A stretch of DNA of 62,942 nucleotides from Minisyncoccota bacterium. Its GTDB lineage: Bacteria; Patescibacteriota; Minisyncoccia; Phycocordibacterales; Phycocordibacteraceae. The notes beneath the pieces were generated by a model. It was not told the origin of the DNA. It ran no database searches and saw nothing but the letters and a program-made list of their open reading frames with translations. The translations under genes were made by a program, and so were the position numbers. Below, piece after piece: positions 2 through 55,300 of the stretch (its first letter is position 1; every line of letters starts with the position of its first letter). The stretch is from positions 1 to 62,942 of the forward strand of contig JBAZRE010000004.1 in assembly GCA_041663025.1 (NCBI GenBank), in the 5' to 3' direction.

Positions 2-1672
2 CTCGCACCTGATTATAAGAAGATGTATGTGCCTCTTGTTATCTTAGATCGAGGTACGGCACAAATTGGCGATAAAGTGCTCGCGCGTCTTGTCAGCTGG
101 GATGCAGATAAAGAATACCCACTCGGCACTATTGAAGAAGTTATCGGTAAAGCTGGAGTGCACGAGACCGAGATGCGCGCCCTCGCGCTCGGGCAAGGAT
201 TCTCGAGCGACTTCCCTCCCAGTGTTGTCGCCGATGCAAAATATCTTGAAGAACACGGTCGCGCGATGCTCATCGAAGAAGCTTCTAATCCGAAGCGACG
301 AGATATGCGTGACGCTCCCACCTGCACTATCGATCCATTTGATGCAAAAGACTTTGATGACGCCCTCTCGGTGAGGGCGATTGCGGATGGCAAGATAGAA
401 GTCGGTGTGCATATTGCCGACGTCTCCTTCTTCGTGAAGCCCGGTAGTGCGCTTGATAATGAGGCTGTTGAGCGCGCCACGAGCGTCTATCTGGTTGACC
501 GCACGATCCCCATGCTCCCTGAAATACTTTCGACTGATCTCTGCTCGCTGAAGCCTGATGAAGATCGTCTCGCGGTCTCTGCTATCTTCACGCTCGATGC
601 AGAGGCAAATGTTGAGGATGTCTGGTTCGGCGAGACGATTATCCATTCTGACAAGCGATTCACTTATGAAGAGGCACAAGGAGTGCTCGACACCGGCAAA
701 GGCATCTTGCATACAGAACTTTCGCTGCTCTTTGACCTATCAAAAAAGATTCGCACGCGACGTGTCGCGCGCGGTGCTGTTGAGTTTGATACTGCTGAGG
801 TAAAGGTTGAATTGGATGCTGAAGGACGACCAATCGCTATCCGTTTGAAGCAACAGCAGGCGACAAATCGCCTCATTGAAGACTTCATGCTCCTCGCCAA
901 CGAGGCCGTAGCGAAGCATCTCTCGAAGCTCACCAAGAATGGTGGACCTCACTTTGCTTCACTATATCGTATTCACGATGTGCCCGATGCAGATCGTATC
1001 GAGAATCTCATGAACCTATTGCGCGTCATGGGCTACCATCTAAAAACATCTGGGGACGGCAAAGTAACTGGTGCGGAATTAAACAAACTCATGGACGAGG
1101 TAAAGGGTAAGCCCGAGGAATATCTGGTGAAGATGGCAACACTACGCTCGATGAGCAAAGCAATCTACACTACAAAAAACATCGGCCACTTCGGTCTCGC
1201 CTTCGACTTCTACACTCATTTCACTTCTCCAATCCGCCGCTATCCTGACCTCGTGATTCATCGACTCGTGAAGGCGCACGCGGGTGGCGATCCCATCACT
1301 CCGGCAGAGATGCAAGAGTTTGATACACTCGCGATCCACGCTTCTGAGAGAGAAGTTGCTGCTTCAACTGCCGAACGCGATTCGATCAAGATGAAGCAGG
1401 TGGAGTTCCTCGCGGGCAGAATTGGTGAAGAATTTGACGCGGTTATCTCCGGCGTCACCGAGCGCGGTCTCTACGTCGAAGAAAAGGGGACCCATGCCGA
1501 CGGTATGATTCGCGTCAAAGATGTCGGTAATGACTATTTTGAATACGACGAGAAGCACTATCGCCTCATCGGCAAGCGCACTGGCAAATCGTACCAACTC
1601 GGCGACCCCATACGCGTCAAGCTCGCCGCTGCTCGCCTCGCTGAAAAAGAACTGGATTTTATCCCCGTTTAG
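2..1672 (+). CDS. rnr: Exoribonuclease R / RNase II family (RNB domain + C-terminal S1), 5'-partial
   Basis: ORF 23..1672, with the frame open back to the window edge (LAPDYKK precedes the first ATG). RNB-type motifs DPFDAKDFDDALSV and HFGLAFDFYTHFTSPIRRYPDLVIHR; S1-like C-terminus. Confidence 0.85.
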   Translation, partial: LAPDYKKMYVPLVILDRGTAQIGDKVLARLVSWDADKEYPLGTIEEVIGKAGVHETEMRALALGQGFSSDFPPSVVADAKYLEEHGRAMLIEEASNPKRRDMRDAPTCTIDPFDAKDFDDALSVRAIADGKIEVGVHIADVSFFVKPGSALDNEAVERATSVYLVDRTIPMLPEILSTDLCSLKPDEDRLAVSAIFTLDAEANVEDVWFGETIIHSDKRFTYEEAQGVLDTGKGILHTELSLLFDLSKKIRTRRVARGAVEFDTAEVKVELDAEGRPIAIRLKQQQATNRLIEDFMLLANEAVAKHLSKLTKNGGPHFASLYRIHDVPDADRIENLMNLLRVMGYHLKTSGDGKVTGAELNKLMDEVKGKPEEYLVKMATLRSMSKAIYTTKNIGHFGLAFDFYTHFTSPIRRYPDLVIHRLVKAHAGGDPITPAEMQEFDTLAIHASEREVAASTAERDSIKMKQVEFLAGRIGEEFDAVISGVTERGLYVEEKGTHADGMIRVKDVGNDYFEYDEKHYRLIGKRTGKSYQLGDPIRVKLAAARLAEKELDFIPV

Positions 1673-1680
1673 TTTCCTTT

Positions 1681-1710
1681 GTGAATTATGGACATCGTAA
1701 GTCCATAGAT
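1681..1710. repeat. REP-like hairpin family A, copy 1 (30-nt unit GTGAATTATGGACATCGTAAGTCCATAGAT; stem TATGGAC/GTCCATA at 1687..1707)
   Basis: Identical 30-nt unit recurs at 2398..2427. Perfect 7-bp stem with a 7-nt loop. Lies 8 nt after the rnr stop codon. Confidence 0.85.
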
Positions 1711-1726
1711 GCGCTATGCTGTGGAT

Positions 1727-2401
1727 ATGGAACTTTGGCATGCGCTTAATCGCGGAGTAGACGGACGAGATTTATTCATGGACGATCGTGATCGTCTCCG
1801 CTTCATTCATGATCTTTACGAATTTGACGACACAGAACCTGCCAATCCAAACGTCGGCTATCACTTCAAATCTATGGACATCGTAAGTCCATATATCAAT
1901 AAACGGTCACGGACTCGTCTCGTTGAAATCCACGGTTGGTGTCTGATGAAAAATCATTATCATCTTCTTATGTCTGAGCTTATGGAGGGCGGTCTTTCAC
2001 TTTTTTTGCGAAAATTGAACGTTGGGTATGCAAAATCGTTCAACGAAAAATATGGACGGGTCGGGACTCTGTTCCAAAGCCGTACGAAAAAGATACTTAT
2101 CGAGAATGACGCACACTTTAATTACATTCTCCATTATATTCATCTCAATCCACTCGATTATCTTGCCGGAGCAGAGGCATGGAGAGAACGCAGTCATGCT
2201 GGAATTGCGAATGCCAAAGATGCTTTGAATTATCTTGAGCAATATCGCTGGAGTAGTTATCTGGATTATGCAGGACAAAAGAATTTCCCTTCAATACTCA
2301 CAACGTCGATTTTCAAAGACGCGCTTGGAAATTACTCGCAATCTCTTGAGGAATATCTAGTCGGAGTGACGGAAGATCAAGAATTATTGCGCTTTGAGTG
2401 A
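1727..2401 (+). CDS. RAYT-like HUH/Y1 transposase (COG1943 / IS200-like family), paralog A
   Basis: ORF 1709..2401; the likely start is the MELWHALNRG ATG at 1727, which aligns with paralog C. HUH motif NHYHLL, Tyr motif HYIHLNPL, N-terminal WHxxNRG...LF.DDxDRxRF. The TGA stop lies inside hairpin unit 2398..2427. Confidence 0.8.
   Translation: MELWHALNRGVDGRDLFMDDRDRLRFIHDLYEFDDTEPANPNVGYHFKSMDIVSPYINKRSRTRLVEIHGWCLMKNHYHLLMSELMEGGLSLFLRKLNVGYAKSFNEKYGRVGTLFQSRTKKILIENDAHFNYILHYIHLNPLDYLAGAEAWRERSHAGIANAKDALNYLEQYRWSSYLDYAGQKNFPSILTTSIFKDALGNYSQSLEEYLVGVTEDQELLRFE
1873..1893. repeat. Family A hairpin, internal copy inside the RAYT-A ORF (encodes MDIVSPY)
   Basis: TATGGACATCGTAAGTCCATA is identical to the flanking hairpins and is read in-frame. 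Confidence 0.85.
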
Positions 2402-2427
2402 ATTATGGACATCGTAAGTCCATAGAT
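2398..2427. repeat. REP-like hairpin family A, copy 3 (same 30-nt unit as 1681..1710)
   Basis: 30/30 identity to 1681..1710. Overlaps the RAYT-A stop codon. Confidence 0.85.
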
Positions 2428-2430
2428 ACC

Positions 2431-2463
2431 AAAAAAGAATTGGATTTTGTGCCTACCGTATAG
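2431..2463 (+). other. Relic or second copy of the rnr 3' end (KKELDFVPTV*)
   Basis: aaaaaagaattggattttgtgcctaccgtatag compared with the rnr end gaaaaagaactggattttatccccgtttag (EKELDFIPV*). The two sit on either side of the RAYT-A cassette. Confidence 0.6.
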
Positions 2464-2799: not shown

Positions 2800-5010
2800 T
2801 CATTTCGCCACGGCGACGGCTTCGTCAAATTTGACGGAGAGGAGCTTGGAGACGCCGTCGCCACCCATCGTGACGCCATAGAGGATACTGGTGCGACTCA
2901 TGGTCTCACGGTTGTGAGTGATAACGATAAGCTGAGAGCGCTTCGCGAGATTCTCAATCATGTCTCCATAACGGCGGCTGTTTGCCTCGTCGAGCGCGGC
3001 GTCGGTCTCATCGAGAATAAGGAATGGCGGCGGGTTCACTTGGCTCATCGCGAATATGAGCGCGATAGAGGTGAGCGCACGCTCGCCGCCTGAGAGCTGC
3101 ATCAAAGAGCGTACTTTTTTCTTTGGCAGATTGACCGCTATCTCTATACCTGCGCGTTCTTTCTCTTTTGGCTCATCGCCAAAACTTTCTTCCCTCCCCT
3201 CGTCGTCTGACTCATCTAGATCTTCGCTCTCTTCGAGAGTTAGGCGTGCACTCCCGCCATCAAACATAAGCGCGAAGTATTCGCTAAACGAGGCATTCAC
3301 TCTGGAGAGTCCTTCTGAGAAGTGCTTTGCAAGTTCAGTATCCAAATCGTGAATGAGCGCGCCCAATCCTGCCGCCGACTTTGCCAGATCCTCCAACTCA
3401 ACAGAGAGGAACGTCTCACGTTCGGAAACTTCTTTGTGTTCTTGTCGAATATCCTCGCCCATTCCTCCCGCCTCTTCCAAACGAATCTTCATGCGCTCAA
3501 GTGCGCGCTTACGATCTTCTTGGGTCTTCCTTTCTTCTTCTGGCATCTGCGCAAGCGGTTCATAAGAAATCGCACTTGTCCCAGCGAGAGCAAGCACTTC
3601 ACCCTTATCACGCTCGAGCTCCTCGGCAAGCAAAGAGAGTTCATATTCACGCGCAATGCTTCTCGCCATTTCCCCTTCTTCGTGCGCTTTCGCTTGTGCA
3701 GAATCAAGAATATGACGCCTAATCTCGCGACCAGTTTCTTCCAAAGCGAGCATGGCTTCGCGCGCCCTAGATCGCGCGAGCTCTGCTGCCTCCAACTTAG
3801 CCGAAAGTTCTGTGAACTTTTCAGCGAGGGCGGCGCTCTTCTCCTCGAGCGGATAAACTGCGCGTTCCTCTTCATCGAGCAGATTGTCATTCGGCGAGAC
3901 AAAGCGCGAGACGAAGTTCGCTACAGCTATCTTCACCGCTTCGAGTGCAGCTGCTGCCTTTTCGATGGTATGCGCTGAGTCGACTTGTTTTCCAACTTCA
4001 TCAGCGAGTGAGGTGAGATCAGCACGCGGCACCTTCGCGTATGGTTCGCGCGCGATAGTTGTTGCGCGCCGCTTCACTTCTGCAAGTGCTCCCTCGACAC
4101 GGCCAATATCTCGTGACAGCGCAGCACGTTCAGCAGATATTTCTGATACTTCATGTTCCGCCTTCTTCAACGCTTCAGTACGCTTGACTGTTTCTTGATC
4201 TGCAGAGTTCGGATCCGCGATTCGGTCAAGTTCAGCACTTGCGATCGCAAGACGCTCATTCGCATTACGTTTCTCTTCTGCGACCTTTACCTTCTCGTGC
4301 GCCAAGTATGCGTCCTCGATTGCGAAATAGGTTTGCGCTGAGCCAACAAGCTCATTTCGCAATGCATCAGCGCGCTCGAGCTTCTTTACCTGACCTTCAA
4401 GAAAGCGGAGATGCGGCGCGAGTTCTCGCCGGAGCGAATTTATTTGTGCAATATTCTCTTCGGTCTTCTCGAGTTTCTTCTGTGCCTCTTGCTTCTTAAA
4501 TTCGTACACCTTTAGCCCGAGTGCATCCTCAAGCATCGCACGTCGATCACGATTTGACGCGAGCAGTATCCGATCTGCCTCGCCTTGAGAAATAATATGG
4601 TGACCCGTCTCGCCGATATTGGCTCCAGCGAGCAACTCTTCAATATCACGTAAACGCACCCGTGAACCATTGATGGAATATTCACTCGTGCCATCACGAA
4701 AGGCGGCACGCTCAATTGCTACTTCATCAAAGTCGATCTTGAATTGTCGGCGAGCATTATCAAAGACGATAGAGACCGCCGCGCGATTCGCACGCGGCAT
4801 TGAATGTGAACCGTTAAAAATGAGATCCTCCGCGCGCTTGCCGCGCATACTCTTCATTGACTGCTCGCCGAGCGCGAAGCGGAACGCTTCGGCGACATTA
4901 CTCTTACCCGAGCCGTTTGGGCCGACAATTGCCGTCGTCGCATTCGAAAAGTCCAAGACCGTCTTCTTGGCGAACGACTTAAACCCGACTATTTCAAGCC
5001 GCTTCAGCAT
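2800..5010 (-). CDS. smc: SMC-family chromosome segregation ATPase, unusually short (736 aa, no recognisable hinge)
   Basis: N-terminal LEIVGFKSF...GPNGSGKSN Walker A; RRAMLEDALGLKVYEFKKQEA; C-terminal LSGGERALTSIALIFA...LILDETDAALD signature and Walker B. Confidence 0.8.
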   Translation of the reverse strand: MLKRLEIVGFKSFAKKTVLDFSNATTAIVGPNGSGKSNVAEAFRFALGEQSMKSMRGKRAEDLIFNGSHSMPRANRAAVSIVFDNARRQFKIDFDEVAIERAAFRDGTSEYSINGSRVRLRDIEELLAGANIGETGHHIISQGEADRILLASNRDRRAMLEDALGLKVYEFKKQEAQKKLEKTEENIAQINSLRRELAPHLRFLEGQVKKLERADALRNELVGSAQTYFAIEDAYLAHEKVKVAEEKRNANERLAIASAELDRIADPNSADQETVKRTEALKKAEHEVSEISAERAALSRDIGRVEGALAEVKRRATTIAREPYAKVPRADLTSLADEVGKQVDSAHTIEKAAAALEAVKIAVANFVSRFVSPNDNLLDEEERAVYPLEEKSAALAEKFTELSAKLEAAELARSRAREAMLALEETGREIRRHILDSAQAKAHEEGEMARSIAREYELSLLAEELERDKGEVLALAGTSAISYEPLAQMPEEERKTQEDRKRALERMKIRLEEAGGMGEDIRQEHKEVSERETFLSVELEDLAKSAAGLGALIHDLDTELAKHFSEGLSRVNASFSEYFALMFDGGSARLTLEESEDLDESDDEGREESFGDEPKEKERAGIEIAVNLPKKKVRSLMQLSGGERALTSIALIFAMSQVNPPPFLILDETDAALDEANSRRYGDMIENLAKRSQLIVITHNRETMSRTSILYGVTMGGDGVSKLLSVKFDEAVAVAK

Positions 5011-5024
5011 TACCCACTATTGTA

Positions 5025-5726
5025 TCACCAGTTCATCTTATCGAGACCTGATTGCGCAGCTGCTTGTTCTGCCTCCTGCTTACTCTGCCCTTCTCCACGA
5101 GCTATTTCTTCTTTGCCGATGAAGATGCCGACAGTGAAGAGCTTTGCGTGATCGGGGCCTTCTTCAGAGAGTGTCTCGTAGCGCGGCGTTGTACTTTTCT
5201 TTTCTTGTGCGGATTCTTGGAAACGACTCTTGGCGTCTTGGTATGAGCGTTTGGAAATAACACTGTCGATCTTACTATAGAGATTCTTTGCAATAAACGC
5301 CTCAGCGGCGGCATAGCCAGAATCAAGGTAGAGCGCCCCGATAAGAGCCTCAAAGGCATCGGCAAGTATCACGTCGCGCGCGCGACCAGTATCCTTGGCT
5401 TCACCCTTCGAGAGCAATAAATACTCATTGATGCCGATTGATTGTGCACTCTCGGCGAGCGAGACGGTGTTCACCAGAGCTGCGCGATACGCAGTGAGGT
5501 CACCCTCTGGCTTAGCGGGGAATTTTTTGAAGAGAAAGTCGGTCGTCGCGAGCTCGAGTACCGCGTCACCGAGAAATTCTAACCTCTCATTATGCGAACC
5601 AGCATAGTCTCTGTGCTCGTTTAAATAGGAGCGGTGCGTCAACGCCTCGATAAGTAGATCGAGGTTATTAAACGAAACACCGAGCTGTTGTGCAAACGAT
5701 GCGAAATCAGGCATGAATGAAAGCAT
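5025..5726 (-). CDS. rnc: Ribonuclease III
   Basis: ALTHRSY...NERLEFLGDAVLEL signature followed by a C-terminal dsRBD-like region. Confidence 0.9.
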   Translation of the reverse strand: MLSFMPDFASFAQQLGVSFNNLDLLIEALTHRSYLNEHRDYAGSHNERLEFLGDAVLELATTDFLFKKFPAKPEGDLTAYRAALVNTVSLAESAQSIGINEYLLLSKGEAKDTGRARDVILADAFEALIGALYLDSGYAAAEAFIAKNLYSKIDSVISKRSYQDAKSRFQESAQEKKSTTPRYETLSEEGPDHAKLFTVGIFIGKEEIARGEGQSKQEAEQAAAQSGLDKMNW

Positions 5727-5817
5727 AGCATTGTAAAGTGTGTGGTCAATAAATGATTCAGGCCCCGCGTACTGCGAGGCCTGTGGTTCTATTTTTCAGC
5801 AAAAATTATTTTCGTCT

Positions 5818-6264
5818 TCAGATCCCATGGGTCTTCCGGCCGACAGGATAAGAAGTGAGCCACGCAACTCCGTTTGAGAACAAGCAAAATATAAACTTGT
5901 CGATCGGATTCATAAGCGTATAGTAGCGGCGATGTTCGTCTCCATGGAATTTAATCACAGCACGTGGTGCTCCCTCTGCGGGGCAGAGATTGCCAATTCT
6001 TCCGGCCTTTTCCCATAGGCGCTCATCTGATGGTTGGCGAGAGAAAAGGTCACCGACCTCGCAACACAAGAGATTGAGCTTCTTGGGCTCCGGCGAAATT
6101 GATGCGTTGAATTCGTCTGATCGGATTATCTTTTCTGCATTTGGTGTCACTCTGATGTCCATCATGCCGGAAAGTATCTGATCACCTGATCTACTTAACC
6201 CGATTTCAATTGGTATTACCTGTTGTTTAACCGTGTTCACAATCTTCCTCGCTTCTCGTGCCAT
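5818..6264 (-). CDS. Hypothetical protein
   Basis: 148-aa ORF filling the gap between nusB and rnc on the same strand. No motif recognised. Confidence 0.5.
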   Translation of the reverse strand: MAREARKIVNTVKQQVIPIEIGLSRSGDQILSGMMDIRVTPNAEKIIRSDEFNASISPEPKKLNLLCCEVGDLFSRQPSDERLWEKAGRIGNLCPAEGAPRAVIKFHGDEHRRYYTLMNPIDKFIFCLFSNGVAWLTSYPVGRKTHGI

Positions 6265-13320: not shown

Positions 13321-14367
13321 CTAAAAATTGATTTCCTTTGTAGAACCATCTTCGAAGATGCTGATCTCTTGAAGTTTTTTATCTGATGTTAATGTACTGC
13401 TGGCGATAATCCCGCTGTATATCACTTCGATTTTTTGTAATGTACTGGTGGCTGAAATATAAATGTGTCCTTGATCAAACACCAGCGTAGTACTGTCTTT
13501 TATGTTTTTAATTGTTTCTAACGAAGAAACATCATTCGGGCAGGCACTATACGTGGTGATCAAATTTTTGTGAAGTTCATAAACTGTCGTTAATCTTTCT
13601 CCTCGAGCATTAAACAAGTATTTGTTTTCCTGCAAATCGTTCCCGTAACAAAAACGACTATTCGCCGTAGGCAACACAGTTTTGTCATCAGAACAATGTA
13701 CACTGAAATTTTGTGTCGGAGTTGTGCTACTTATAGCGTTACTAGGAAATAATTTGTTGTAAAGTTTTTTTGTTACCAGAGAATCTGCTATCCCTAGGAA
13801 ACGAGCGTTGGAAATGTTTTCATCCGCAAAAGAATATTTGCTATCGTACCAACCGTTCTGATCGTTAGCGGTTTCAGGATGAAATATGTACGTTGAATTC
13901 TTGATGCTATCCGACAATTCAATTTTGCATGTAACTTCTAAATTTCTACAAGAAGCTGGCGTGTCATATTGACAAGAGGGTCCCGCATTATTACCACCAG
14001 GCGTTATTTGGTCTTCGTATGCTTGTGTAGTGGTCGCTACAGTCGGTGTCGTTGTGGTAGTGAGTGACGGCAATGTAATGAGACCATATGAATACGCCGC
14101 ATAGGCGCCTCCGGCGCCGAGGAGAAGCAGGATGAGGATAATCACCGTCGCCCACATGCCTTTATGGCTGCGAGAAGCAGCAGGTGGAGTGGCTGCTTGT
14201 GCGGTATGTTCACTTTCAATCGCAAAAAACGCGTCGTCTAAATCCTGCACGTTCCATCCTTTGGCAGAAAGGTTCTGTTTAATAACATCCTTAGCAATCC
14301 CCGCCCCTAATTGTTGGCGTATATAGGTCTGAAGTTCAGGTGTGATCATACCCATATTAAAACACAC
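13321..14367 (-). CDS. Membrane-anchored extracytoplasmic protein (hypothetical)
   Basis: 348-aa ORF: short N-terminal cytoplasmic segment, one TM helix (WATVIILILLLLGAGGAYAAY), Thr-rich linker, Cys-containing ectodomain. Confidence 0.65.
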   Translation of the reverse strand: MCFNMGMITPELQTYIRQQLGAGIAKDVIKQNLSAKGWNVQDLDDAFFAIESEHTAQAATPPAASRSHKGMWATVIILILLLLGAGGAYAAYSYGLITLPSLTTTTTPTVATTTQAYEDQITPGGNNAGPSCQYDTPASCRNLEVTCKIELSDSIKNSTYIFHPETANDQNGWYDSKYSFADENISNARFLGIADSLVTKKLYNKLFPSNAISSTTPTQNFSVHCSDDKTVLPTANSRFCYGNDLQENKYLFNARGERLTTVYELHKNLITTYSACPNDVSSLETIKNIKDSTTLVFDQGHIYISATSTLQKIEVIYSGIIASSTLTSDKKLQEISIFEDGSTKEINF

Positions 14368-14408
14368 CTTTGCCTATCAATTTCTAAAAATCCACCATCG
14401 CGAGCCTT

Positions 14409-14429
14409 TATCAAGGTGAGACCTTGATA
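14409..14429. repeat. REP-like hairpin family B, copy 1 (TATCAAGG-TGAGA-CCTTGATA)
   Basis: Perfect 8-bp stem with a 5-nt loop. Identical copies at 14458..14478 and 15173..15193. Confidence 0.85.
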
Positions 14430-14457
14430 TTCACCACTACAGTAATTACCGAGGCAT

Positions 14458-14478
14458 TATCAAGGTGAGACCTTGATA
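14458..14478. repeat. REP-like hairpin family B, copy 2
   Basis: Identical 21-mer, 10 nt upstream of the RAYT-B start. Confidence 0.85.
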
Positions 14479-14488
14479 TAATTACACT

Positions 14489-15172
14489 ATGCCAAACCGA
14501 GATCCTTTTGGAGTTGATGAATGGTATCACTGTTATAATCGCGGCGTTGATAAGAGGACAATTTTTGAAGATGCGGGAGACTATAACCGATTTATGTTGT
14601 TATTGTTCCTAGGGAACAGTCCTGAGCCTATTCACATAGCAAACCTGAAAGATCCAAATTTGCATATAGTGCTCAAGGATCCGTCGATAGAATACGGGGA
14701 GCCATTGGTAGAAATAGGTGCGTATGTTCTTATTCAAAACCACTTTCATCTCCTCTTAAAAGAGGTTAAAGAGGGCGGTATTGCGACATTCACACAGCGA
14801 ATTTTTACCGCATATACCATGTATTTCAACAAGAAAAATGAAAGAACTGGAGCACTCTTCGGTGGAGCCTTTAACTCTCGACATCTTGATGATGATCTCT
14901 ATCTCAAACAAGTTGTCTCCTACATTCACCTGAACACTGCAGAACTTTTTGATCCAAAATGGAAAAATGGTCTGGGAGATCTCAAAAAGATTGAAGAGGG
15001 AGTGTCTAAGTATCCTTATTCGAGTCTCCCTGACTTTTTAGGTCAGAAGCGTCCTGAACGAAAGATACTTGGCGACTCTATTTTTGAGTTGTTTGAAACA
15101 ATCCCGACATTACAAGAAATGATTAGGGACGCCAATGCATATTACGCAGAGCACCCAAAGAGTGACATGTAA
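14489..15172 (+). CDS. RAYT-like HUH/Y1 transposase (COG1943 / IS200-like), paralog B
   Basis: WYHCYNRGVDKRTIFEDAGDYNRF, HUH motif NHFHLLL, Tyr motif SYIHLNTA; 227 aa. Confidence 0.8.
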   Translation: MPNRDPFGVDEWYHCYNRGVDKRTIFEDAGDYNRFMLLLFLGNSPEPIHIANLKDPNLHIVLKDPSIEYGEPLVEIGAYVLIQNHFHLLLKEVKEGGIATFTQRIFTAYTMYFNKKNERTGALFGGAFNSRHLDDDLYLKQVVSYIHLNTAELFDPKWKNGLGDLKKIEEGVSKYPYSSLPDFLGQKRPERKILGDSIFELFETIPTLQEMIRDANAYYAEHPKSDM

Positions 15173-15193
15173 TATCAAGGTGAGACCTTGATA
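15173..15193. repeat. REP-like hairpin family B, copy 3
   Basis: Identical 21-mer that abuts the RAYT-B TAA stop. Confidence 0.85.
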
Positions 15194-15197
15194 TTTT

Positions 15198-15227
15198 TTA
15201 AAGGTCGACTGTCGCAAGTTTGGCGTT
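15198..15227 (-). other. Second, synonymously recoded copy of the last nine gyrB codons plus stop (NAKLATVDL*)
   Basis: Minus-sense aacgccaaacttgcgacagtcgacctttaa compared with the gyrB end aatgcaaagcttgctacggttgatctttag. Same peptide; 7 of 9 sense codons differ only at the third position. Confidence 0.7.
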
Positions 15228-15229
15228 TG

Positions 15230-15245
15230 TCCGCCAGCTGGCGGA
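15230..15245. repeat. Perfect 16-nt palindrome TCCGCCAGCTGGCGGA between the gyrB stop and the recoded copy
   Basis: Read directly from the sequence; it occupies most of the 28-nt spacer. Confidence 0.8.
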
Positions 15246-15255
15246 GGATGAAGGA

Positions 15256-17322
15256 CTAAAGATCAACCGTAGCAAGCTTTGCATTACTTTGAATGAAACT
15301 TTTACGTGCGGCGACGTCGGTACCCATGAGGATATCGAAGATACGATCGGCTGCCTCAGCATCTTCAACGTTGACGCGCTTTAGGACGCGGCGTTCTGGG
15401 TTCATCGTGGTCTCCCAGAGCTCGCTCGGATTCATTTCGCCGAGACCTTTGTAGCGCTGAATATTTACTTTTGTTGCTTTTTTTGCAGCTACTACTTCCT
15501 CTGCCGCTTCGTCTGAAGATTCGGCCTCATCACCCTCGCTAATCAACACCACCTCATTTGCTGCGGCACCAAACTCCTTCAAAACTGCTTCTTTTTCTTT
15601 ATCAGAATAGGCATACGCGCTCGCCTTCCCCTTCGTTATTTTATAGAGCGGCGGTTGGGCGATATATACAAACCCACCATCTATAATTGGCTTAAAATGT
15701 CTATACAAAAGAGTTAGGAGAAGCGTGCGGATGTGCGCGCCATCGACGTCAGCATCAGTCGCGATGATGATCTTGTGATAGCGCAGCTTCGAGAGGTCAA
15801 AGACGTCGCCGATGGCGGTACCCATGGCGACAATGAGCGCACGGATCTCGACCGACGCGAGCATGCGATCAAGGCGAGCGCGCTCGACGTTGAGGATCTT
15901 ACCGCGCAAAGGCAAGATTGCTTGTGTGCGGCGATCTCTGCCCTGCTTGCTCGATCCGCCGGCCGAGTCTCCCTCCACAATGAAGAGTTCACCCTCTTCG
16001 GCGCTCTTGGTCTGGCAGTCTGCTAGCTTACCTGGCAAAGTCATGCCCTCAAGTGCGCCCTTACGCAGCACAGAGTCCTTTGCTGCCTTTGCTGCCTTGC
16101 GCGCCTTCAATGCGAGCGAAACTTTATTGATAATAGCGCGTGCATCATCTGGATTCTCCTCAAGAAATGCCGCGAGCGCCTCACCGAAGACGGTTGCAAC
16201 CGCGCCCTGTGCTTCAACAGAACCAAGCTTCGCTTTGGTCTGTCCTTCAAACTGAATCTCAGCAAGTTTTACCGACACGACAGCAGTGATGCCCTCAAGC
16301 ACATCATCACCAGTGAAGTTTTCGTCCTTTTCTTTCAAAATATTCGAATTCCTGCCATAGGTGTTGAGCGATCGTGTGAGCGCTGTCTTGAAGCCAGTGA
16401 TATGCGTACCGCCCTCAGCGTTGTAAGTATTGTTTGCGAAGGCAGTGATGCGTGAGACGATATCGTCGACATATTGGAAGGCGACTTCGACTGAAACCTT
16501 ATCGATCTCGCGATCGATATAGAAAATGTTTTTGTGCACCGGCGTCTGATGCTTGTTGTGGAATGCGACGAGCGACTTGAGGCCGCCTTCAAAATAAAAG
16601 GTTGTCGATGGGACGCCGAGATTTTGTTCACGCAAGAAAACGGTCTCGGTCTCAAAGGCGTCTTTGTTATTATGCGCATCAACTATCGAGATGCGCACAC
16701 CCTTCACCAAGTACGCCTGCTGGCGCAGATGCGCGACTATCTTTTCCAAATTCCATTCAATACCCTCCTTAAAAATAGTCGCGTCTGGTTTGAAGAGAAC
16801 AATCGTGCCATGTTCTTTGCTGGTGCCAATTTTCTTTACCTTGTGAATTGGTTTACCAATTTTATATTCCTGCACGTGCATGCCGCCGTCTTGATGCACC
16901 ACAACCTTGGTGTGCTCCGAGAGTGCGTTCACCACAGATGCGCCAACGCCGTGCAAGCCTCCAGAGACCTTATATGCCTCATTATCAAACTTACCGCCTG
17001 CATGAAGCGTCGTCATGATCGTTTCCAACGCAGAAACTTTTGTTTTGGGATGAATACCAACCGGAATACCATTGCCATTATCGGCAACGCGCACATAGCC
17101 ATCAGGCAGGAGCGCTACCTCAATGTCGTCACAGCGTCCGACCATCGCCTCGTCGCGTGCGTTGTCGAAGATCTCCCAGACCAAGTGATGCAGGCCATCG
17201 GGCCCAGTCGTGCCGATGTACATCCCCGGGCGCTTGCGCACCGGCTCGAGCCCCTCGAGGACGGTAATAGACGAGGCATCGTACGCCTTCTTTTTAGGTT
17301 CTTTTTCAGGGGTTTTAGGCAT
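15256..17322 (-). CDS. gyrB: DNA gyrase subunit B
   Basis: SSITVLEGLEPVRKRPGMYIG and Toprim EGDSAGG motifs; 688 aa. Confidence 0.93.
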   Translation of the reverse strand: MPKTPEKEPKKKAYDASSITVLEGLEPVRKRPGMYIGTTGPDGLHHLVWEIFDNARDEAMVGRCDDIEVALLPDGYVRVADNGNGIPVGIHPKTKVSALETIMTTLHAGGKFDNEAYKVSGGLHGVGASVVNALSEHTKVVVHQDGGMHVQEYKIGKPIHKVKKIGTSKEHGTIVLFKPDATIFKEGIEWNLEKIVAHLRQQAYLVKGVRISIVDAHNNKDAFETETVFLREQNLGVPSTTFYFEGGLKSLVAFHNKHQTPVHKNIFYIDREIDKVSVEVAFQYVDDIVSRITAFANNTYNAEGGTHITGFKTALTRSLNTYGRNSNILKEKDENFTGDDVLEGITAVVSVKLAEIQFEGQTKAKLGSVEAQGAVATVFGEALAAFLEENPDDARAIINKVSLALKARKAAKAAKDSVLRKGALEGMTLPGKLADCQTKSAEEGELFIVEGDSAGGSSKQGRDRRTQAILPLRGKILNVERARLDRMLASVEIRALIVAMGTAIGDVFDLSKLRYHKIIIATDADVDGAHIRTLLLTLLYRHFKPIIDGGFVYIAQPPLYKITKGKASAYAYSDKEKEAVLKEFGAAANEVVLISEGDEAESSDEAAEEVVAAKKATKVNIQRYKGLGEMNPSELWETTMNPERRVLKRVNVEDAEAADRIFDILMGTDVAARKSFIQSNAKLATVDL

Positions 17323-26416: not shown

Positions 26417-27610
26417 TTAAAACTCCTGGAAGCTTGAAGGGAGATTCACCGTAACTGATTTGCTAACCGGAGAGCCATTGGTCTGACACGTGATGGTGAA
26501 CACAGTCCGTCCAGTGATTGGGTCAGATACAATATCCGTGCCGCTGAGACCATTTTTCCATGCAGTGCCATTTTGCGTCACTGCACAACTCAGTACCTCA
26601 AGCGATGTCCACGTTATTTTTGAGGTTGAGCCGGATGGTACTCGCATCGGGTTTGCGCTGATAGAAACATTCGGCTGCGTCACAGTTACGGTCACATTAG
26701 AAGGAGATGATGGCGTGTCGTCAGAACTATAACAAGTGATCGAATAGGCCGATGTGGCAGATGGACTTACCGATACACCCGTACTGTTAGCGGCCGCAAC
26801 ATGTGTCATTGGATCGTTTGCAAATATGCAGTACGTCGCATTCGTAGAACTCCACGTCAATGTTGCCGATTGACCGTTGTCGATGGTCGCCGCGCCCGCG
26901 CCATTGACGAGGAGTGAGGCGGTTGGAAGGAACACGTCGCATGCTGGTGGGTTGGTTGCGCCATTGCTACACGCTCCACTCGTACATCCCTCGAAACAGG
27001 TGACGCAACTACTCTCATTCCAGAATAATGGATCGGCACAGGTGTTGCAGGTTGGATAATTGTTTGCACCGTTTACACACGCCATCGCTTCTGCCACGAC
27101 GCCATATCCCGACCCACTCCAAGAAATCCATCCAACTACGTCAGAGCCCCAAGAATATCCTGCGGCGGCATTTGCGGTGAAAGTGACGCTTGGTGACCAA
27201 GGACCGGATAATTTTATCCACCCGTCCCAGCCGCTTCCGTTCGCAGAAAGTGCCTTTGCCCAGCCGGTTACCGCTCCGGTGCTGGTGTTGAGATTCGGCT
27301 GTGTCGTGCACCCAGATTCCGGACATCCTGAAGTCTCGTTAAAAGAGATCCAGCCGATATTATCGCTCCACGCGTAGCCAGAAAAATTACCTGTGCTCGC
27401 GTTGATGTTCACGCCATAATCCACCGCACTGCCGTCAGAAATATTGTTAAAAGAGATCCAGCCGACAGTATCGCTCCACGCATAGCCGGAAACATTTTGA
27501 CCTGCACCCGCATGAGCAGTAGGGATTTGCAACCACTCTTCTTGACGAATACCCACTACAAAAACGAGTGTGGCGAGCAGCACAAGAGTAAGGGCGAGAC
27601 GTTTATTCAT
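26417..27610 (-). CDS. Secreted repeat protein (GYAWSDxxGWISF repeats + Ig-like modules)
   Basis: Signal-peptide-like N-terminus; three SGYAWSD..GWISFN-type repeats; ATLTWSSTNATYC module. Confidence 0.65.
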   Translation of the reverse strand: MNKRLALTLVLLATLVFVVGIRQEEWLQIPTAHAGAGQNVSGYAWSDTVGWISFNNISDGSAVDYGVNINASTGNFSGYAWSDNIGWISFNETSGCPESGCTTQPNLNTSTGAVTGWAKALSANGSGWDGWIKLSGPWSPSVTFTANAAAGYSWGSDVVGWISWSGSGYGVVAEAMACVNGANNYPTCNTCADPLFWNESSCVTCFEGCTSGACSNGATNPPACDVFLPTASLLVNGAGAATIDNGQSATLTWSSTNATYCIFANDPMTHVAAANSTGVSVSPSATSAYSITCYSSDDTPSSPSNVTVTVTQPNVSISANPMRVPSGSTSKITWTSLEVLSCAVTQNGTAWKNGLSGTDIVSDPITGRTVFTITCQTNGSPVSKSVTVNLPSSFQEF

Positions 27611-37015: not shown

Positions 37016-37040
37016 ATGTAGGACGTCCGACGTCCTACAT
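37016..37040. repeat. REP-like palindrome family C, copy upstream of RAYT-C (ATGTAGGACGTC-C-GACGTCCTACAT)
   Basis: Perfect 25-nt palindrome, 18 nt upstream of the RAYT-C start. Confidence 0.88.
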
Positions 37041-37058
37041 GAATGGTATGATTGAAGT

Positions 37059-37736
37059 GTGGAACTTTACCATGTGATAAACAGAGGGGTTGAGGGGCGT
37101 AATATTTTTCTTGATACGCAAGATTATTCGCGTTTCGTTCATGATCTTTATGAGTTCAATGACACTGCTCCAGCACTTGAATTCAATCATGCAATCTCTC
37201 GCGGTTCAAATGTAGGACGTCCGACGTCCTACATTCGTAAACGACTCGTAGACATTCATGGTTGGGAATTGATGAAAAACCATTTCCACCTTTTGCTTTC
37301 GGAGTGTATCGAAAATGGAATAACACTCTTCTTAAGTAAGATGAGTGGTTATGCGAGATACTTCAACGAACGACACGAGCGACATGGACATCTCTATCAA
37401 GGAAAAACAAAGAAAATACTTATCGCGCAGCAAGAGCATTTTCTTTATGCGCTTCATTATCTTCATTTAAATTCTCTTGATTATCTTCCTGGCGCAAAGA
37501 AGTGGCGTGAACGTGATAAAGGCATGATATCGGATATACCGAAAGCACTGGACTACCTCCAAAATTATCGTTGGAGCAGTTATCCAGACTATTGCGGCAA
37601 AAAGAATTTTCCATCAATCCTCACTACATCGCTTTTTGCTAATGCCTTTGGCACTGATTATGCATCTGCTCTGAAAGAATATCTGACGGATCGAATTACC
37701 AATGAAGATTTAGAATACATAGAATTTGAGCCGTAG
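37059..37736 (+). CDS. RAYT-like HUH/Y1 transposase (COG1943 / IS200-like), paralog C (GTG start)
   Basis: (M)ELYHVINRGVEGRNIFLDTQDYSRF, HUH motif NHFHLLL, Tyr motif HYLHLNSL. Closest to paralog A. Confidence 0.8.
   Translation: MELYHVINRGVEGRNIFLDTQDYSRFVHDLYEFNDTAPALEFNHAISRGSNVGRPTSYIRKRLVDIHGWELMKNHFHLLLSECIENGITLFLSKMSGYARYFNERHERHGHLYQGKTKKILIAQQEHFLYALHYLHLNSLDYLPGAKKWRERDKGMISDIPKALDYLQNYRWSSYPDYCGKKNFPSILTTSLFANAFGTDYASALKEYLTDRITNEDLEYIEFEP
37209..37233. repeat. Family C palindrome inside the RAYT-C ORF (encodes NVGRPTSY)
   Basis: Identical 25-mer, in-frame, at the position homologous to the family A hairpin inside RAYT-A. Confidence 0.88.
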
Positions 37737-37740
37737 AATC

Positions 37741-37765
37741 ATGTAGGACGTCGGACGTCCTACAT
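37741..37765. repeat. Family C palindrome downstream of RAYT-C, overlapping the fba stop codon
   Basis: ATGTAGGACGTC-G-GACGTCCTACAT. The last fba codon (ATG) and TAG stop (37760..37765) lie inside it. Confidence 0.88.
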
Positions 37766-38752
37766 TAGAACTGAGGAGAGTTTGGAGAGACGAGAGAGGA
37801 AAGCGGCGCGAGCAGCAGGAATGTTTTCTTCTTTCCCTCTCCAGAGTGCAAGTGCCTCTTCTTGAATGGCACGTGAGTAAGAAAAGGTCATTGGCCACGG
37901 GGCGTTAACTTCTTTCGCTCGACGGATTATCGCAGACAAGTTGTCTGTTGCCTGATCAGGCGTCTGCCCTCCAGAGAGAAAGACGATACCAGCCACTTGT
38001 GACGGGATACTCGCGACGAGTGCCGCAACAGTATCTTCGGCAACTTCTTCTGGTGTATCTTTCTTCTTGTTTTCATTGCCCGAAAGCGCCATAGAGGTCT
38101 TCACGATCACGCTGGCGCGGTCAACTGAATGTTCGGCAAGTACTGAAAAGAGTGTCTGCATCGTCTTTTCAATGGCTGCACGTGCACGCATGCGACTATG
38201 CTTCCCTTCAAGCAGTACTTCTGGCTCGAGAATAGGCACGAGACCACCCGCCTGTGCCTCCTTTGCATAATTCGCGAGCCGTTTCGCGTTCTCGTGGATC
38301 GCCATATCACTGGGCAGATGATCGCCGTCAATGCGAATAATCGCGCGCCACTTGGTAAAGATCGCACCTTGTTTCTTATATAGTGCGAGTCGTTCAGGAA
38401 GATCAAGAAGACCTTGGGTGATGAGCTCTTGCGGACTATCTTGGAGCGGCTCGGTGCCGAGATCAACCTTCACCCCCGGCAAGATGCCACGAGTCGCAAG
38501 CGATTTTGAAAATAATTTCTTATCATTTCCCTTCTGAAGAAGCGTTTCCGAAAAAAGTATGACCCCTGAGAGATATTTTTCGATTCCCTCGGTGCCAATG
38601 AAGAGATCGCGATCTTGCCGACGCATCTCTGCACTCGCGGGAATGCCATATGAAGCGAGGCGCGTTGTCGCGGAGTGCACACTCTCATCTGCAGCAAGAA
38701 TCCCTTTGCCGGATTGGAATAGTGAACGCGCCGTTGCGACAAGATCAGTCAT
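37760..38752 (-). CDS. fba: Fructose-bisphosphate aldolase, class I
   Basis: GKGILAADES motif; 330 aa. Confidence 0.75.
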   Translation of the reverse strand: MTDLVATARSLFQSGKGILAADESVHSATTRLASYGIPASAEMRRQDRDLFIGTEGIEKYLSGVILFSETLLQKGNDKKLFSKSLATRGILPGVKVDLGTEPLQDSPQELITQGLLDLPERLALYKKQGAIFTKWRAIIRIDGDHLPSDMAIHENAKRLANYAKEAQAGGLVPILEPEVLLEGKHSRMRARAAIEKTMQTLFSVLAEHSVDRASVIVKTSMALSGNENKKKDTPEEVAEDTVAALVASIPSQVAGIVFLSGGQTPDQATDNLSAIIRRAKEVNAPWPMTFSYSRAIQEEALALWRGKEENIPAARAAFLSRLSKLSSVLM

Positions 38753-52308: not shown

Positions 52309-55300
52309 TCATGTTGTAGCTGACGTGTCAGCAGGCACGACATCAGCTCCGACGCTTTCGGTCGGAGTCCCGACTTCTGACGTCGGGACAGGAGGCGGAG
52401 CCGCGGGAGCAGTGGGTTCGACAGTCTCACCGTGAATGACGGTGATGAGGCGCGAGGCGGTGCCGATATTCCCTGCCGCATCGGTCGCGGTGTAGGTGAG
52501 GGTGTAGAGTCCGGCGGTTGAAGTATCGACTGTGCCCGTCACGATCGGCATTATTGATCCATCTGTGTCATCAGCTGCAGTCGCGCCAGGATCGGTGAAG
52601 ACATCGCCAACGGTAATCTGCATCGCTGCATCTCCATTGAGCGTTACCACGGGCGATACCGTATCCGGATTTAAGGTTTGATCCAGCTGTAGCGGGATCG
52701 AACCTTGGTTATCGGAATCAGTCTGACTTCCACCCGCGCCCGAATCCGAAGCGCCAACAATGACCGAGCGCATCGCAGTCGAGCTATTCCCTGCCGCATC
52801 CTTCGCTTCATAGGTGATGAGATAGGTCGTCGGGCTAGCAGTGTCTATCGTCGCTGTAGAAACCTCTTGTTGCACACCATTTATATAGGTAGTGACCGAA
52901 GGATTATTGTCGATATCATCGACAACTGTCACACCTGGATCGGTGAACGTATCACCGACCGAGAGGCGCACCGGATTGTCACCGAGCAGAGTAATCACTG
53001 GCGGCGTCGTATCTCTTTCATTGGAAATTGAAAATTGTGAATTGGAAATTTCTGGCGGCGTGCTCGTCGCCACCTGACCCTCGGTCTGGACGAGGAAGTA
53101 GTCGAAGGAGACGTCGCTCTCTTGTGGCGCAGAGAGCACGAGCTTGAAAGATCCCTCCTTCTTGTCGCTGATGAACCACGAGCCCGTGGTTGAGGCGGTC
53201 AACGTCACGAATATCTTGGTTGTCGGCTTCACGTAGGCGTTCTCAACCTGCGCGACGGTGTTGCCGGCGAGAATGTTGACTGTACCAGCAGAGCTGCTGC
53301 CCTCAGAATTGGTCGCGGCGACGAATCGGTCGGCAATCAGCGTGCCAAACTGCGCGATGCCATTGCTTATGAACACTCCGAATGCGTTAAACGCGCTTGC
53401 GAGTGTTGAAGTGGAGAAGGTAACTGGTGAGTCGCTCGCTGTTGAGACTTCACCATTCTCGAGCGCGGAGACGCGCGCCTCAAGCGAGGTGAGGCGCATC
53501 TCGTGTGCATCAACCTTCGCCGCGAGATCATACACACCAGAGAGCGTGTAGGTCGCGAGCTTGTAGATATCAACGCCATTGCCGTCGGCCGTCAGAACAT
53601 CTGGAGATGTAGTGGAAGCAAAACCTCCAAGTAGACTTGAGATGTCACCTCTGACTGGCACAATAAATTCGTTTGCACTAACCGCACCGCTCACGTTGAA
53701 AGCATCCAGACTTAATTTATCAATCGATTGTTTGACCATCGCCTGCACTTGATCTTCAATCTTCATATTGGCGACGCGGTCTGCGACCATGCTCTCAACC
53801 TGTTCAACCACCAAGCTCTTGTTGCGACGAGAAATCAACACATTAATTTTGCCTTCGCCCTCTGCCAATGGCTCGAGCGCGACGCCCACAGTCGGATCGC
53901 CCGGATCAGCGCGCATCACGTATCCCGGCGTTGAAGATGCCGCGGTGAGCGAGTCGCCGGATATGATTGGCCCATTCTCCGCGCTCACGAACGCCGGAAT
54001 CTGACCGAGCATAGCGATGAGCTTGTAGTTCGGATTATTTTTATATTCCTCCTTCGCGTTCCCGATGAAGCCCGGCTTTGTGGAGACGATGCCCATCAGA
54101 TTATTATCCGCAGCACGATCGCAACGCTTCACCGCATTCTTCTGGCTCGTGTCAACACAGACTGCCTCGCCAGATTTCAAATCGATGTCGTCAGTGTAGA
54201 AATATTCGGCGTAGTCAGCGCTGCCGGACTGCAAGGCGACCGGGCTGTAGATACTGCCGTCAGCGCGCACATCGCCGTAGCCGGTAACACGGAAGATGGC
54301 GCCGGACGTCGTGGTGGAAATAACGAATGCATCAGAATTATCGGTTACGCTACTCACCACCGACAATCTGGCATATGGGCTGGTGGTGCCGATGCCCACA
54401 TTACCCAAAGAATCAATGACCATCGCCTGATCGCCGCCGCCGATAGTGGTGGTGGCGTTCGTTACCGATGGCGCGATGGTCAACCCGCCCAAGCTGTTAA
54501 CGGTAAAGTTCGCATAATTGGTGGTGTCATATGCCAACGTCAGCTGGGCGCCGACGCTTGAGGCGATAGAGAGTCGCGACATCGGCGAGCTCGTGCCGAC
54601 GCCGACATAGCCGCTGCTTAAAATCGTAATGTCTTCGCCCGATGTTCCATTCCCCATGCTAAATCTGCCGCTATGTTCCCATATTCTAAAGTCCGCATCT
54701 TCACCGCTTGCATCGTTAAAGTCTATAAGTCCGCCAGAACTGCCATAGAGCTGCATGCCCGCATAACTTGAGATTATCCCCAAGAAAGCTCCTTGAGCAG
54801 TCGGCATATTGCCAGTCCCAAGATCTCCAACTACATGGAGAGGTGAGAGTGGATCTGCCGTCCCGATGCCGACGTTCCCGCTTGTTTGTTGAACCACAAA
54901 TTTATTCGTTCCGATGGTCAAACCATTAGCAAAGGTTGATGTCGCCGTACCAGAACTCAAGCCGAGAGATCCGTCGGTAGAAGAGATTCCTGTGCCCGTG
55001 AGATACAGCGAGCCAGTACCGACCTTCAAAGTACCCATGACGTGCAGATTGTTCTCAATGGTTGAGGTCCCTGTCCCGCCCACATAGAGTCTGCCCGATG
55101 TGGAGAGAGATTCGGCAGGCGAGGTGGTGCCAATTCCGACGTTTCCATTCGCCAACACGGTCATAAAGGTTGAAGTGGCCGTACCGTTGGTGGTTGAGGC
55201 AATCGTGAAGAGCGGCGTGTTGGCGGCGGTGGTTCTGGAGTTTGAAATGGAGAGAAGAGAACCAGGGGTCGTAGAGCCCAAACCAATTCGGCCGGTGGCG

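Follow-up and report, generated by a model that had tools for sequence, protein, structure and literature searches.

Stacked and recoded gyrB ends beside a RAYT-like hairpin cassette in a Minisyncoccota genome

Why should an essential gene be followed, 28 nucleotides (nt) after its stop codon, by a second version of its own last codons that spells the same peptide differently? The question is raised by the gyrB gene of a Minisyncoccota bacterium, an uncultured, groundwater-type member of the candidate phyla radiation that resembles Paceibacterota / Kaiserbacteria (assembly GCA_041663025.1, contig JBAZRE010000004.1, positions 1 to 62,942, the whole stretch analysed and referred to below as the window), and by a small cassette with a RAYT-like gene, here called RAYT-B, that faces gyrB from its 3' side. 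Three gyrB ends lie around this cassette, and their decay follows their order, as would fit successive displacement: the first (c1) is functional, the next (c2) is intact but out of frame, and the outermost (c3) is decayed. The best reading of this arrangement, which we consider moderately probable, is that repeated insertions at a hot spot at the 3' end of gyrB have each regenerated the gene end. From gyrB outwards, the locus consists of the following features (coordinates, strand, description; aa, amino acids).

15256..17322, minus strand: gyrB, the target gene, 688 aa, from its open reading frame and translation, with 8000 homologues and the Pfam domains HATPase_c, DNA_gyraseB, Toprim and DNA_gyraseB_C
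15256..15285, minus strand: c1, the current functional gyrB end, apparently the newest layer and a third codon version, NAKLATVDL plus TAG
15228..15255, minus strand: spacer of 28 nt between c1 and c2, composed of tccttcatcc, the 16-nt palindrome TCCGCCAGCTGGCGGA and ca
15198..15227, minus strand: c2, a displaced, cassette-linked gyrB end, apparently functional until c1 arrived, NAKLATVDL plus TAA, out of frame with gyrB
15171..15195, plus strand: hairpin B on the 3' side of RAYT-B, overlapping the RAYT-B stop codon (-8.6 kcal/mol, z = -7)
14489..15172, plus strand: RAYT-B, a Y1 (HUH) transposase-like gene convergent with gyrB, from motifs, an AlphaFold2 model and Foldseek
14409-14431 and 14458-14479, plus strand: two hairpin B copies on the 5' side of RAYT-B, with loop orientation as in the 3' copy
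14384..14407, minus strand: c3, the decayed relic of the native gyrB end, AGG CTC GCG ATG GTG GAT TTT TAG, that is, RLAMVDF and stop
13321..14349, minus strand: gene X, 342 aa, membrane-anchored, no family match, lying directly after gyrB in cassette-free relatives

Three gyrB ends and a RAYT-like gene

The codons of c1 are aat gca aag ctt gct acg gtt gat ctt tag, and those of c2 are aac gcc aaa ctt gcg aca gtc gac ctt taa. The two agree at 22 of 30 nt, in stretches of at most 5 consecutive identical nt, and each of the 8 differences is a silent third-position change (7 of the 9 sense codons plus the stop). A random match of at least 22/30 at any of 300 downstream offsets has P ~5e-5, while peptide and stop are retained in only 1.3e-6 of all sequences 8 substitutions from c1; resemblance by chance is excluded. 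Since c2 lies in the +1 frame relative to gyrB, it is not translated within that gene, and c2 as a translated sequence in its own right was rejected, given this frame and the lack of a start signal. Compared with every other intact gyrB end examined, c1 differs at 7-11 of 30 nt. The palindrome TCCGCCAGCTGGCGGA is exact at 15230-15245 and occurs once in the window, and the spacer folds as DNA into a 6-bp stem with a 4-nt loop (-6.1 kcal/mol); c1 and spacer together form a 58-nt inserted unit. A search of the window with up to 3 mismatches and of 173 fetched loci for exact copies returned the palindrome elsewhere only in L081 and L082, which are contigs identical to the window, and terminator, promoter, Rfam and tRNA scans of 14200-15500 gave no match.

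Most of this had been seen in the initial annotation, which reported the second NAKLATVDL with its stop 28 nt on, recoded by silent third-position changes in 7/9 codons and the stop, together with the perfect 16-nt palindrome, and argued that neutral decay would hardly preserve the peptide. Re-reading of the sequence and the 1.3e-6 given above agree with this, and the gap between the c2 stop and hairpin B, put there at 4 nt, measures 2-5 nt depending on the chosen stem start. The annotation counted two gyrB ends, however; both are real, but the decayed third copy was missed.

This third copy, c3, immediately borders the outermost hairpin B, on the side of the cassette away from gyrB, and carries a frameshift and three amino-acid changes; gene X starts 33 nt downstream of it. 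Cassette-free relatives whose GyrB has the same C-terminus were recovered. In two of them, L167 and L168, gyrB ends in ACA GTG GAT TTG TAA, followed after ~33 nt by gene X, and in an alignment c3 and the far copies of two cassette-bearing genomes (L083 and L084) match the native end and intergenic region of L167 and L168. The far copy is therefore recognised as the original resident end, and c3 is shown by this comparison to be the native gyrB end, still joined to gene X. Two further cassette-free relatives, L165 and L166, show the gene order of the window minus the cassette: gyrB with a terminator hairpin 9-14 nt behind it, a convergent aminoacyl-tRNA synthetase (aaRS) gene and dnaE. The final codons GTG GAT TTG TA are identical in the native ends of L083 (far copy), L085, L086, L167, L168 and L169, while gyrB third positions of these same genomes are otherwise only ~50% identical; the native end thus shows conservation at the nucleotide level. 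AGY serine codons are common to the window, L167 and L169, an observation that is suggestive only and not decisive.

As for the gene between the copies, its motifs and predicted fold show RAYT-B to be a Y1 HUH enzyme. Residues H85 and H87 (NHFHLLL) are invariant in its relatives (alignments of 26 and 28), as are Y145 and N149 (Y-x-H-x-N), and Y145 falls within helix 136-153 of the AlphaFold2 model (pLDDT 87, pTM 0.86). The best Foldseek match of this model is 4ER8, a RAYT bound to a REP hairpin (E = 2.4e-6), followed by TnpA structures of IS608, ISDra2 and IS200. Profile searches are less generous: RAYT-B scores 26.6 bits (E = 4.6e-6) against NF047646 and misses its cut-off of 80 bits, it has no Pfam match at E <= 1e-3, and RAYT-A, a second such gene in the window, barely reaches PF01797 (23.5 vs 23 bits). 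The ~1800 homologues of RAYT-B come from similar bacteria and are mostly unnamed or called transposase, many with precomputed PF01797 matches.

Cassette-bearing relatives and other genes

A RAYT-B relative convergent with gyrB was found in seven genomes, namely the window, L001, L083, L084, L085, L086 and L170. Extra gyrB ends are present in 7/7, and 6/7 have two intact ends of the form ATVDL plus stop, the exception being L001, whose far copy is decayed. In L083 the working end runs into TAA-AAAT-hairpin-RAYT-hairpin and then into a second NAKLATVDL and stop with ten silent differences. L084 has three gyrB-end copies with a solo hairpin between the first and second, and the unit ahead of its older end is built like the 58-nt unit of the window (gene end, short spacer, hairpin and a few bases, ~60 nt). 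The far copies span 21-28 codons in L085 and L086 and 11 codons in L170. Pooled over the intact pairs, ~50 nt differences alter just 3 codons, whereas neutral drift of one copy predicts ~60% non-silent changes, an expectation rejected at p ~6e-5 on L085 and L086 alone (calculated by hand from their difference counts).

The codon version next to the hairpin, ACC GTC GAC CTC TAA followed by AAAT and the hairpin, is shared by L083, L084 and, in part, L001. Between L083 and L084 it is identical at 29/30 positions, compared with 80% identity of their gyrB genes and 73% of their RAYT genes. From the functional hairpin-adjacent ends c2 differs at 4/30 (L083) and 5/30 (L084), by silent changes only, and its TAA-AAAT-hairpin context matches theirs. 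These comparisons show c2 to be a member of the hairpin-adjacent version, corresponding to the working end of the relatives, and c2 rather than c1 is the copy tied to the RAYT-B cassette. The proposal of the initial annotation that both copies evolved as working ends in different lineages and came together later is supported by the same figures. On the far side, the hairpin foot stands 0-7 nt from the displaced end in L083, L084 and L001, and compared with the empty site the insertion in L083 is clean, with all target bases retained. The RAYT-B relative appears to be largely inherited with its host at one locus; RAYT and gyrB trees conflict for L001, whose RAYT is nearer to L085/L086 and whose gyrB is nearer to the window group.

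Several of these loci hold further material. At L085 3210-3366 and to the right of the L172 RAYT lies a 3'-end fragment of a class II aaRS gene with a shared terminator hairpin; it sits between the gyrB stop and the RAYT hairpin, so that the cassette is surrounded by repeated ends of both convergent genes. A solitary hairpin from a different family, GCGGAGGTTTAACCTCCGC, additionally follows gyrB in L085. In L086 and L170/L171 a GNAT acetyltransferase gene begins 2-4 nt past the working gyrB stop, cargo-like within the segment bracketed by the two gyrB ends. The inserted gene of L169, discussed below, is phosphoribosyltransferase-like by eye.

Other genes show a similar layout. A generality scan covered 80 RAYT-B relatives, in which recoded ends were found by a stop-anchored scan with a shuffled-control scan (a nucleotide repeat search gave hairpins only, and a loose peptide scan was too noisy). 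Cassettes at rnc (RNase III) are flanked by two gene ends, AQKALATKGW and AQKALAAKGW, each with its stop, in L110, and more weakly so in L104 and L106; the rnc of the window itself has a different C-terminus and could not serve as the empty site for these cases. Most of the remaining cassettes follow the stop codon of a convergent gene at a distance of 30-90 nt, and no second end could be detected at them. A parallel case within the window itself is found at rnr.

1643..2463, plus strand: rnr parallel case, in the order rnr end, hairpin A, RAYT-A, hairpin A, second rnr end
1643-1672: rnr end, EKELDFIPV and stop
1688-1706 and 2405-2423: hairpin A copies
1709-2401: RAYT-A
2431-2463: second rnr end, KKELDFVPTV and stop

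Here rnr points in the same direction as RAYT-A, so that its working copy precedes the cassette on the 5' side, in contrast to the arrangement at gyrB. Altogether, four genes show the pattern together with members of one enzyme family. The three RAYT-like genes of the window (A, B and C) have a mutual identity of only 30-33%, and RAYT-A and RAYT-C each have their own hairpin family on both flanks. The RAYT-C cassette (37017-37766) carries hairpin ATGTAGGACGTCCGACGTCCTACAT on either side, the right one containing the stop codon (37760-37762) of a convergent class I fructose-bisphosphate aldolase gene; no clear displaced aldolase end was found on the far side of the cassette. Elsewhere in the window, a 14-residue peptide repeat (VSLKEIQPILSLHA / ILLKEIQPTVSLHA) at 27060-27480, in a plus-strand frame antisense to gene 26417-27610, is probably an internal repeat of that gene, and an open reading frame of 3380 aa occupies 52309-62451 on the minus strand.

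Possible histories of the locus

According to the reading we favour, the locus would have started from the native state of gyrB, its native end, 33 nt and gene X. A hairpin-bounded Y1 (HUH) RAYT-like cassette would then have inserted just upstream of the Asn codon, supplying c2 (the nine last codons and a stop) and pushing the native end to the far side, where it would have decayed to c3. Later a 58-nt piece (c1, its stop, 10 nt, the 16-nt palindrome and 2 nt) would have inserted at the same point, upstream of c2, leaving c1 as the working end. Every incoming end would formerly have been a functional gyrB end of another lineage or element line, and would therefore differ from the end it replaced by silent changes only. 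Survival would be limited to insertions that leave gyrB intact, and displaced ends would offer far-side homology through which insertions could move between related lineages by recombination. Since c2 has no non-silent change, the last step should be recent relative to the first; the protein collection holds no gyrB at 93%-100% identity, and hence no strain-level relative to tell which step came last, and an exact look-up of the window gyrB protein gave no match. The three copies and their decay order are directly visible in the DNA. That the incoming DNA carried a gene end seems likely, the transposase and hairpins may catalyse or trigger the events, and c1 and the palindrome may have originated in the way just described.

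An element-linked process is supported by hairpin feet that abut the displaced ends, by the clean insertion in L083, by the nucleotide-level conservation of the hairpin-adjacent end, by several junctions that fall on one Asn codon or no more than a codon away from it, by the recurrence at four genes and by the tree conflict for L001. A number of observations weigh against it. The junction lies at the Asn codon in the window (c2), in L083, in L084 (far copy) and roughly in L001, but one codon upstream in L084 (middle copy), two upstream in L170 and 21-28 upstream in L085/L086. Lineages thus differ both in where the junction falls and in how long the duplicated end is; this stops short of demonstrating an enzyme step with strict site specificity, and an invariable insertion site was rejected. 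The fragment of the convergent aaRS end in L085 and L172 points to messy recombination rather than to clean transposition. At L169 4571-5340 a 224-aa gene that is not a RAYT follows gyrB directly, without hairpins, and is flanked by an identical 18-nt direct repeat, GTGGATTTGTAAAAATAT, made of the last codons, the stop and 6 nt beyond. In most of the 80 RAYT-B relatives no duplicated gene end was detected, neither an excision product nor an empty allele of this organism was found, and the palindrome was not found elsewhere in the data, so that a second element family is not demonstrated. The wider claim of the initial annotation, that insertion or recombination targets and regenerates the 3' ends of essential genes, is nevertheless supported: the seven genomes, rnc and rnr agree with it, although a strictly site-specific enzyme step does not follow.

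Two alternatives may be set aside with considerable confidence. That the junction is an assembly artefact merging two strains is the least probable of all, close to negligible, although several related Paceibacteria share such samples and contig breaks or switches occur within the conserved stretch of gyrB that codes for GLGEMNPSELWETTM (at 15427 in the window, and in L163 versus L164). The single-run Logan assemblies SRR18595301 (12297-15427) and SRR6484324 (14172-15427) are 100% identical to the window and cover all junctions, so that two independent assemblies reproduce c1, spacer, c2, hairpin and RAYT exactly; with identical runs between c1 and c2 of at most 5 nt, a false join by a k-mer assembler is hardly conceivable, and six other genomes from other studies have the same architecture. 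The possible chimera against which the initial annotation had cautioned is accordingly unlikely. Both Logan contigs (L081 and L082) end at the same base, 15427, in the most conserved coding stretch of gyrB, which suggests an assembly-graph branch common to co-occurring relatives. L163 and L164 (gyrB at 4001-6082), from different samples, are identical over 5928 nt and split 154 nt before the gyrB stop, with gyrB ends of ATVDL versus ANLDV; L163 stops 136 nt further on, at a doublet of AAGG…CCTT hairpins, and the split reflects either true recombination or a chimeric assembly within the GLGEMNPSELWETTM-coding region. The second alternative, in which the gyrB end was duplicated locally in this genome, as a long target-site duplication or by replication slippage, with later divergence, is very improbable too. 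Its direct-repeat geometry fits, and the L169 repeat, identical over 18 nt, indicates that fresh duplications are possible at the site; however, an untranslated copy should gain mostly non-silent changes, as c3 and the far copy of L001 did, whereas 8/8 c1/c2 differences are silent (1.3e-6 by chance), c2 is nearer to the L083/L084 working ends (4-5 differences) than to c1 (8), and the spacer has no counterpart in relatives.

More serious, although still unlikely in our view, is a purely recombinational origin, in which DNA acquired from diverged lineages of related Paceibacteria would have recombined without any targeting encoded by an element. Homology in the highly conserved 3' part of gyrB would serve at one end, and the other end would be joined illegitimately or through the short displaced end. 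Mere passengers would then be seen in the cassette, the GNAT gene, gene X and the palindrome. A cassette-free allele would have replaced the 3' part of gyrB and contributed c1 and the spacer as its gene end and terminator hairpin, with the join falling immediately before c2. Varying lengths of displaced ends and extra junction bases, the non-RAYT insertion with flanking repeats in L169 and the duplicated aaRS-end fragments in L085 and L172 all favour this explanation, as does the geometry of cassette-free gyrB genes, which reach a terminator hairpin within 9-14 nt, much as c1 is followed by 10 nt and the palindrome. Because it has this native-end and terminator geometry, the c1 unit may have its source in an allele that lacks the cassette, and not in a miniature element. 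Homology-facilitated illegitimate recombination is also documented in naturally transformable bacteria, and P0002 and P0003, identical over 5928 nt, switch 154 nt before the gyrB stop; the P0003 switch, however, may be an assembly chimera, because its contig ends 136 nt after gyrB, which counts against this support. What recombination by itself leaves unaccounted for is the placement of the far-side hairpin foot 0-7 nt from the displaced end (L083, L084 and L001), with no target bases lost in L083, three independent junctions that coincide with one Asn codon or lie no more than a codon from it, and recurrence with RAYT-like cassettes at three other genes. Sliding identity along gyrB revealed no clear recombination breakpoint upstream of c1. 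A combined view is that a cassette once captured a gene end and would then have spread by recombination through gyrB and the displaced end, which would also keep refreshing the far copy.

A stronger version of repeated insertion can be put forward tentatively and is, in our estimate, rather unlikely. A Y1 (HUH) hairpin element lineage in Paceibacteria might home to the last codons of the essential, conserved genes gyrB, rnc and rnr, carrying recoded replacement ends, with excision restoring the old end and the 58-nt unit being a miniature non-autonomous member of a second family. As the element would carry the replacement end, insertion would be harmless; as precise excision would restore the old end, the displaced copy would be under intermittent selection, and this would account for far copies that have remained intact even as the transposase genes diverged along with their hosts.

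Known systems and implications

Compared with the RAYT of E. coli (TnpA-REP, 4ER8), RAYT-B has the same Y1 HUH fold, invariant HUH and Tyr motifs and its own flanking short hairpins. It differs in lying far under the curated model cut-off, in a C-terminal extension of ~80 aa, and in flanking hairpins that share loop orientation instead of being inverted. Within the 63 kb covered, hairpin B was found only at the cassette, with no dispersed REP/REPIN population visible. IS200/IS605 elements (IS608, ISDra2) resemble the cassette in enzyme class, in hairpins at both ends on one strand and in size (~0.8 kb, a single gene). They are single-strand 'peel and paste' Y1 transposons with precise excision, and excision of this type would make a retained old gene end usable again. 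To our knowledge, the classical elements insert 3' of a 4-5-nt target, without duplication and without carrying a host gene end. In contrast, the cassette insert is bracketed by diverged target-gene copies of 9-28 codons with varying junctions, and multiple identical copies were not seen, the RAYT-like genes of the window being as dissimilar as stated above.

Integrative elements that use the 3' ends of tRNA, tmRNA or protein genes bring in a substitute end and displace the old one, like c1, c2 and c3, and repeated integrations leave a direct-repeat array with decaying older copies (tandem accretion). As with attL and attR, the insert stands between direct repeats of the target 3' end, with regeneration of the gene, in the window and in the six other genomes. 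Unlike such elements, however, the repeats enclose no tyrosine or serine recombinase (only RAYT-B, and nothing in the 28-nt spacer), they share no identical core (longest run 5 nt), and the 'islands' are tiny, 28 nt and ~0.8 kb. Homology-facilitated illegitimate recombination accounts for variable junctions, passenger genes and the displaced end as a second homology arm, but alone predicts neither clean hairpin-foot junctions nor the recurrence of one enzyme family. A template and variable-repeat pair of a diversity-generating retroelement was rejected, there being no reverse transcriptase among the neighbouring genes and the differences being silent and of all base types.

The literature search yielded no account of RAYT or IS200 elements that regenerate gene ends, nor of such elements in Patescibacteria, and it likewise revealed no RAYT within duplicated ends of essential genes, a position not known to have been described. 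The locus is best filed as a new combination of Y1/RAYT hairpin cassettes with target-gene regeneration, each of a kind known separately.

In practical terms, recoded gene-end repeats beside hairpins provide an annotation signature, and gene 3' ends deserve attention as hot spots of recombination, where assembly and gyrB-based typing can be led astray. If the proposed history is true, the displaced ends would act as natural timers whose decay could date insertions. It would also link single-strand Y1/RAYT hairpin systems with the safe-harbour strategy of integrative elements, and would show how the very small genomes of uncultured candidate-phyla bacteria tolerate mobile DNA in essential genes.

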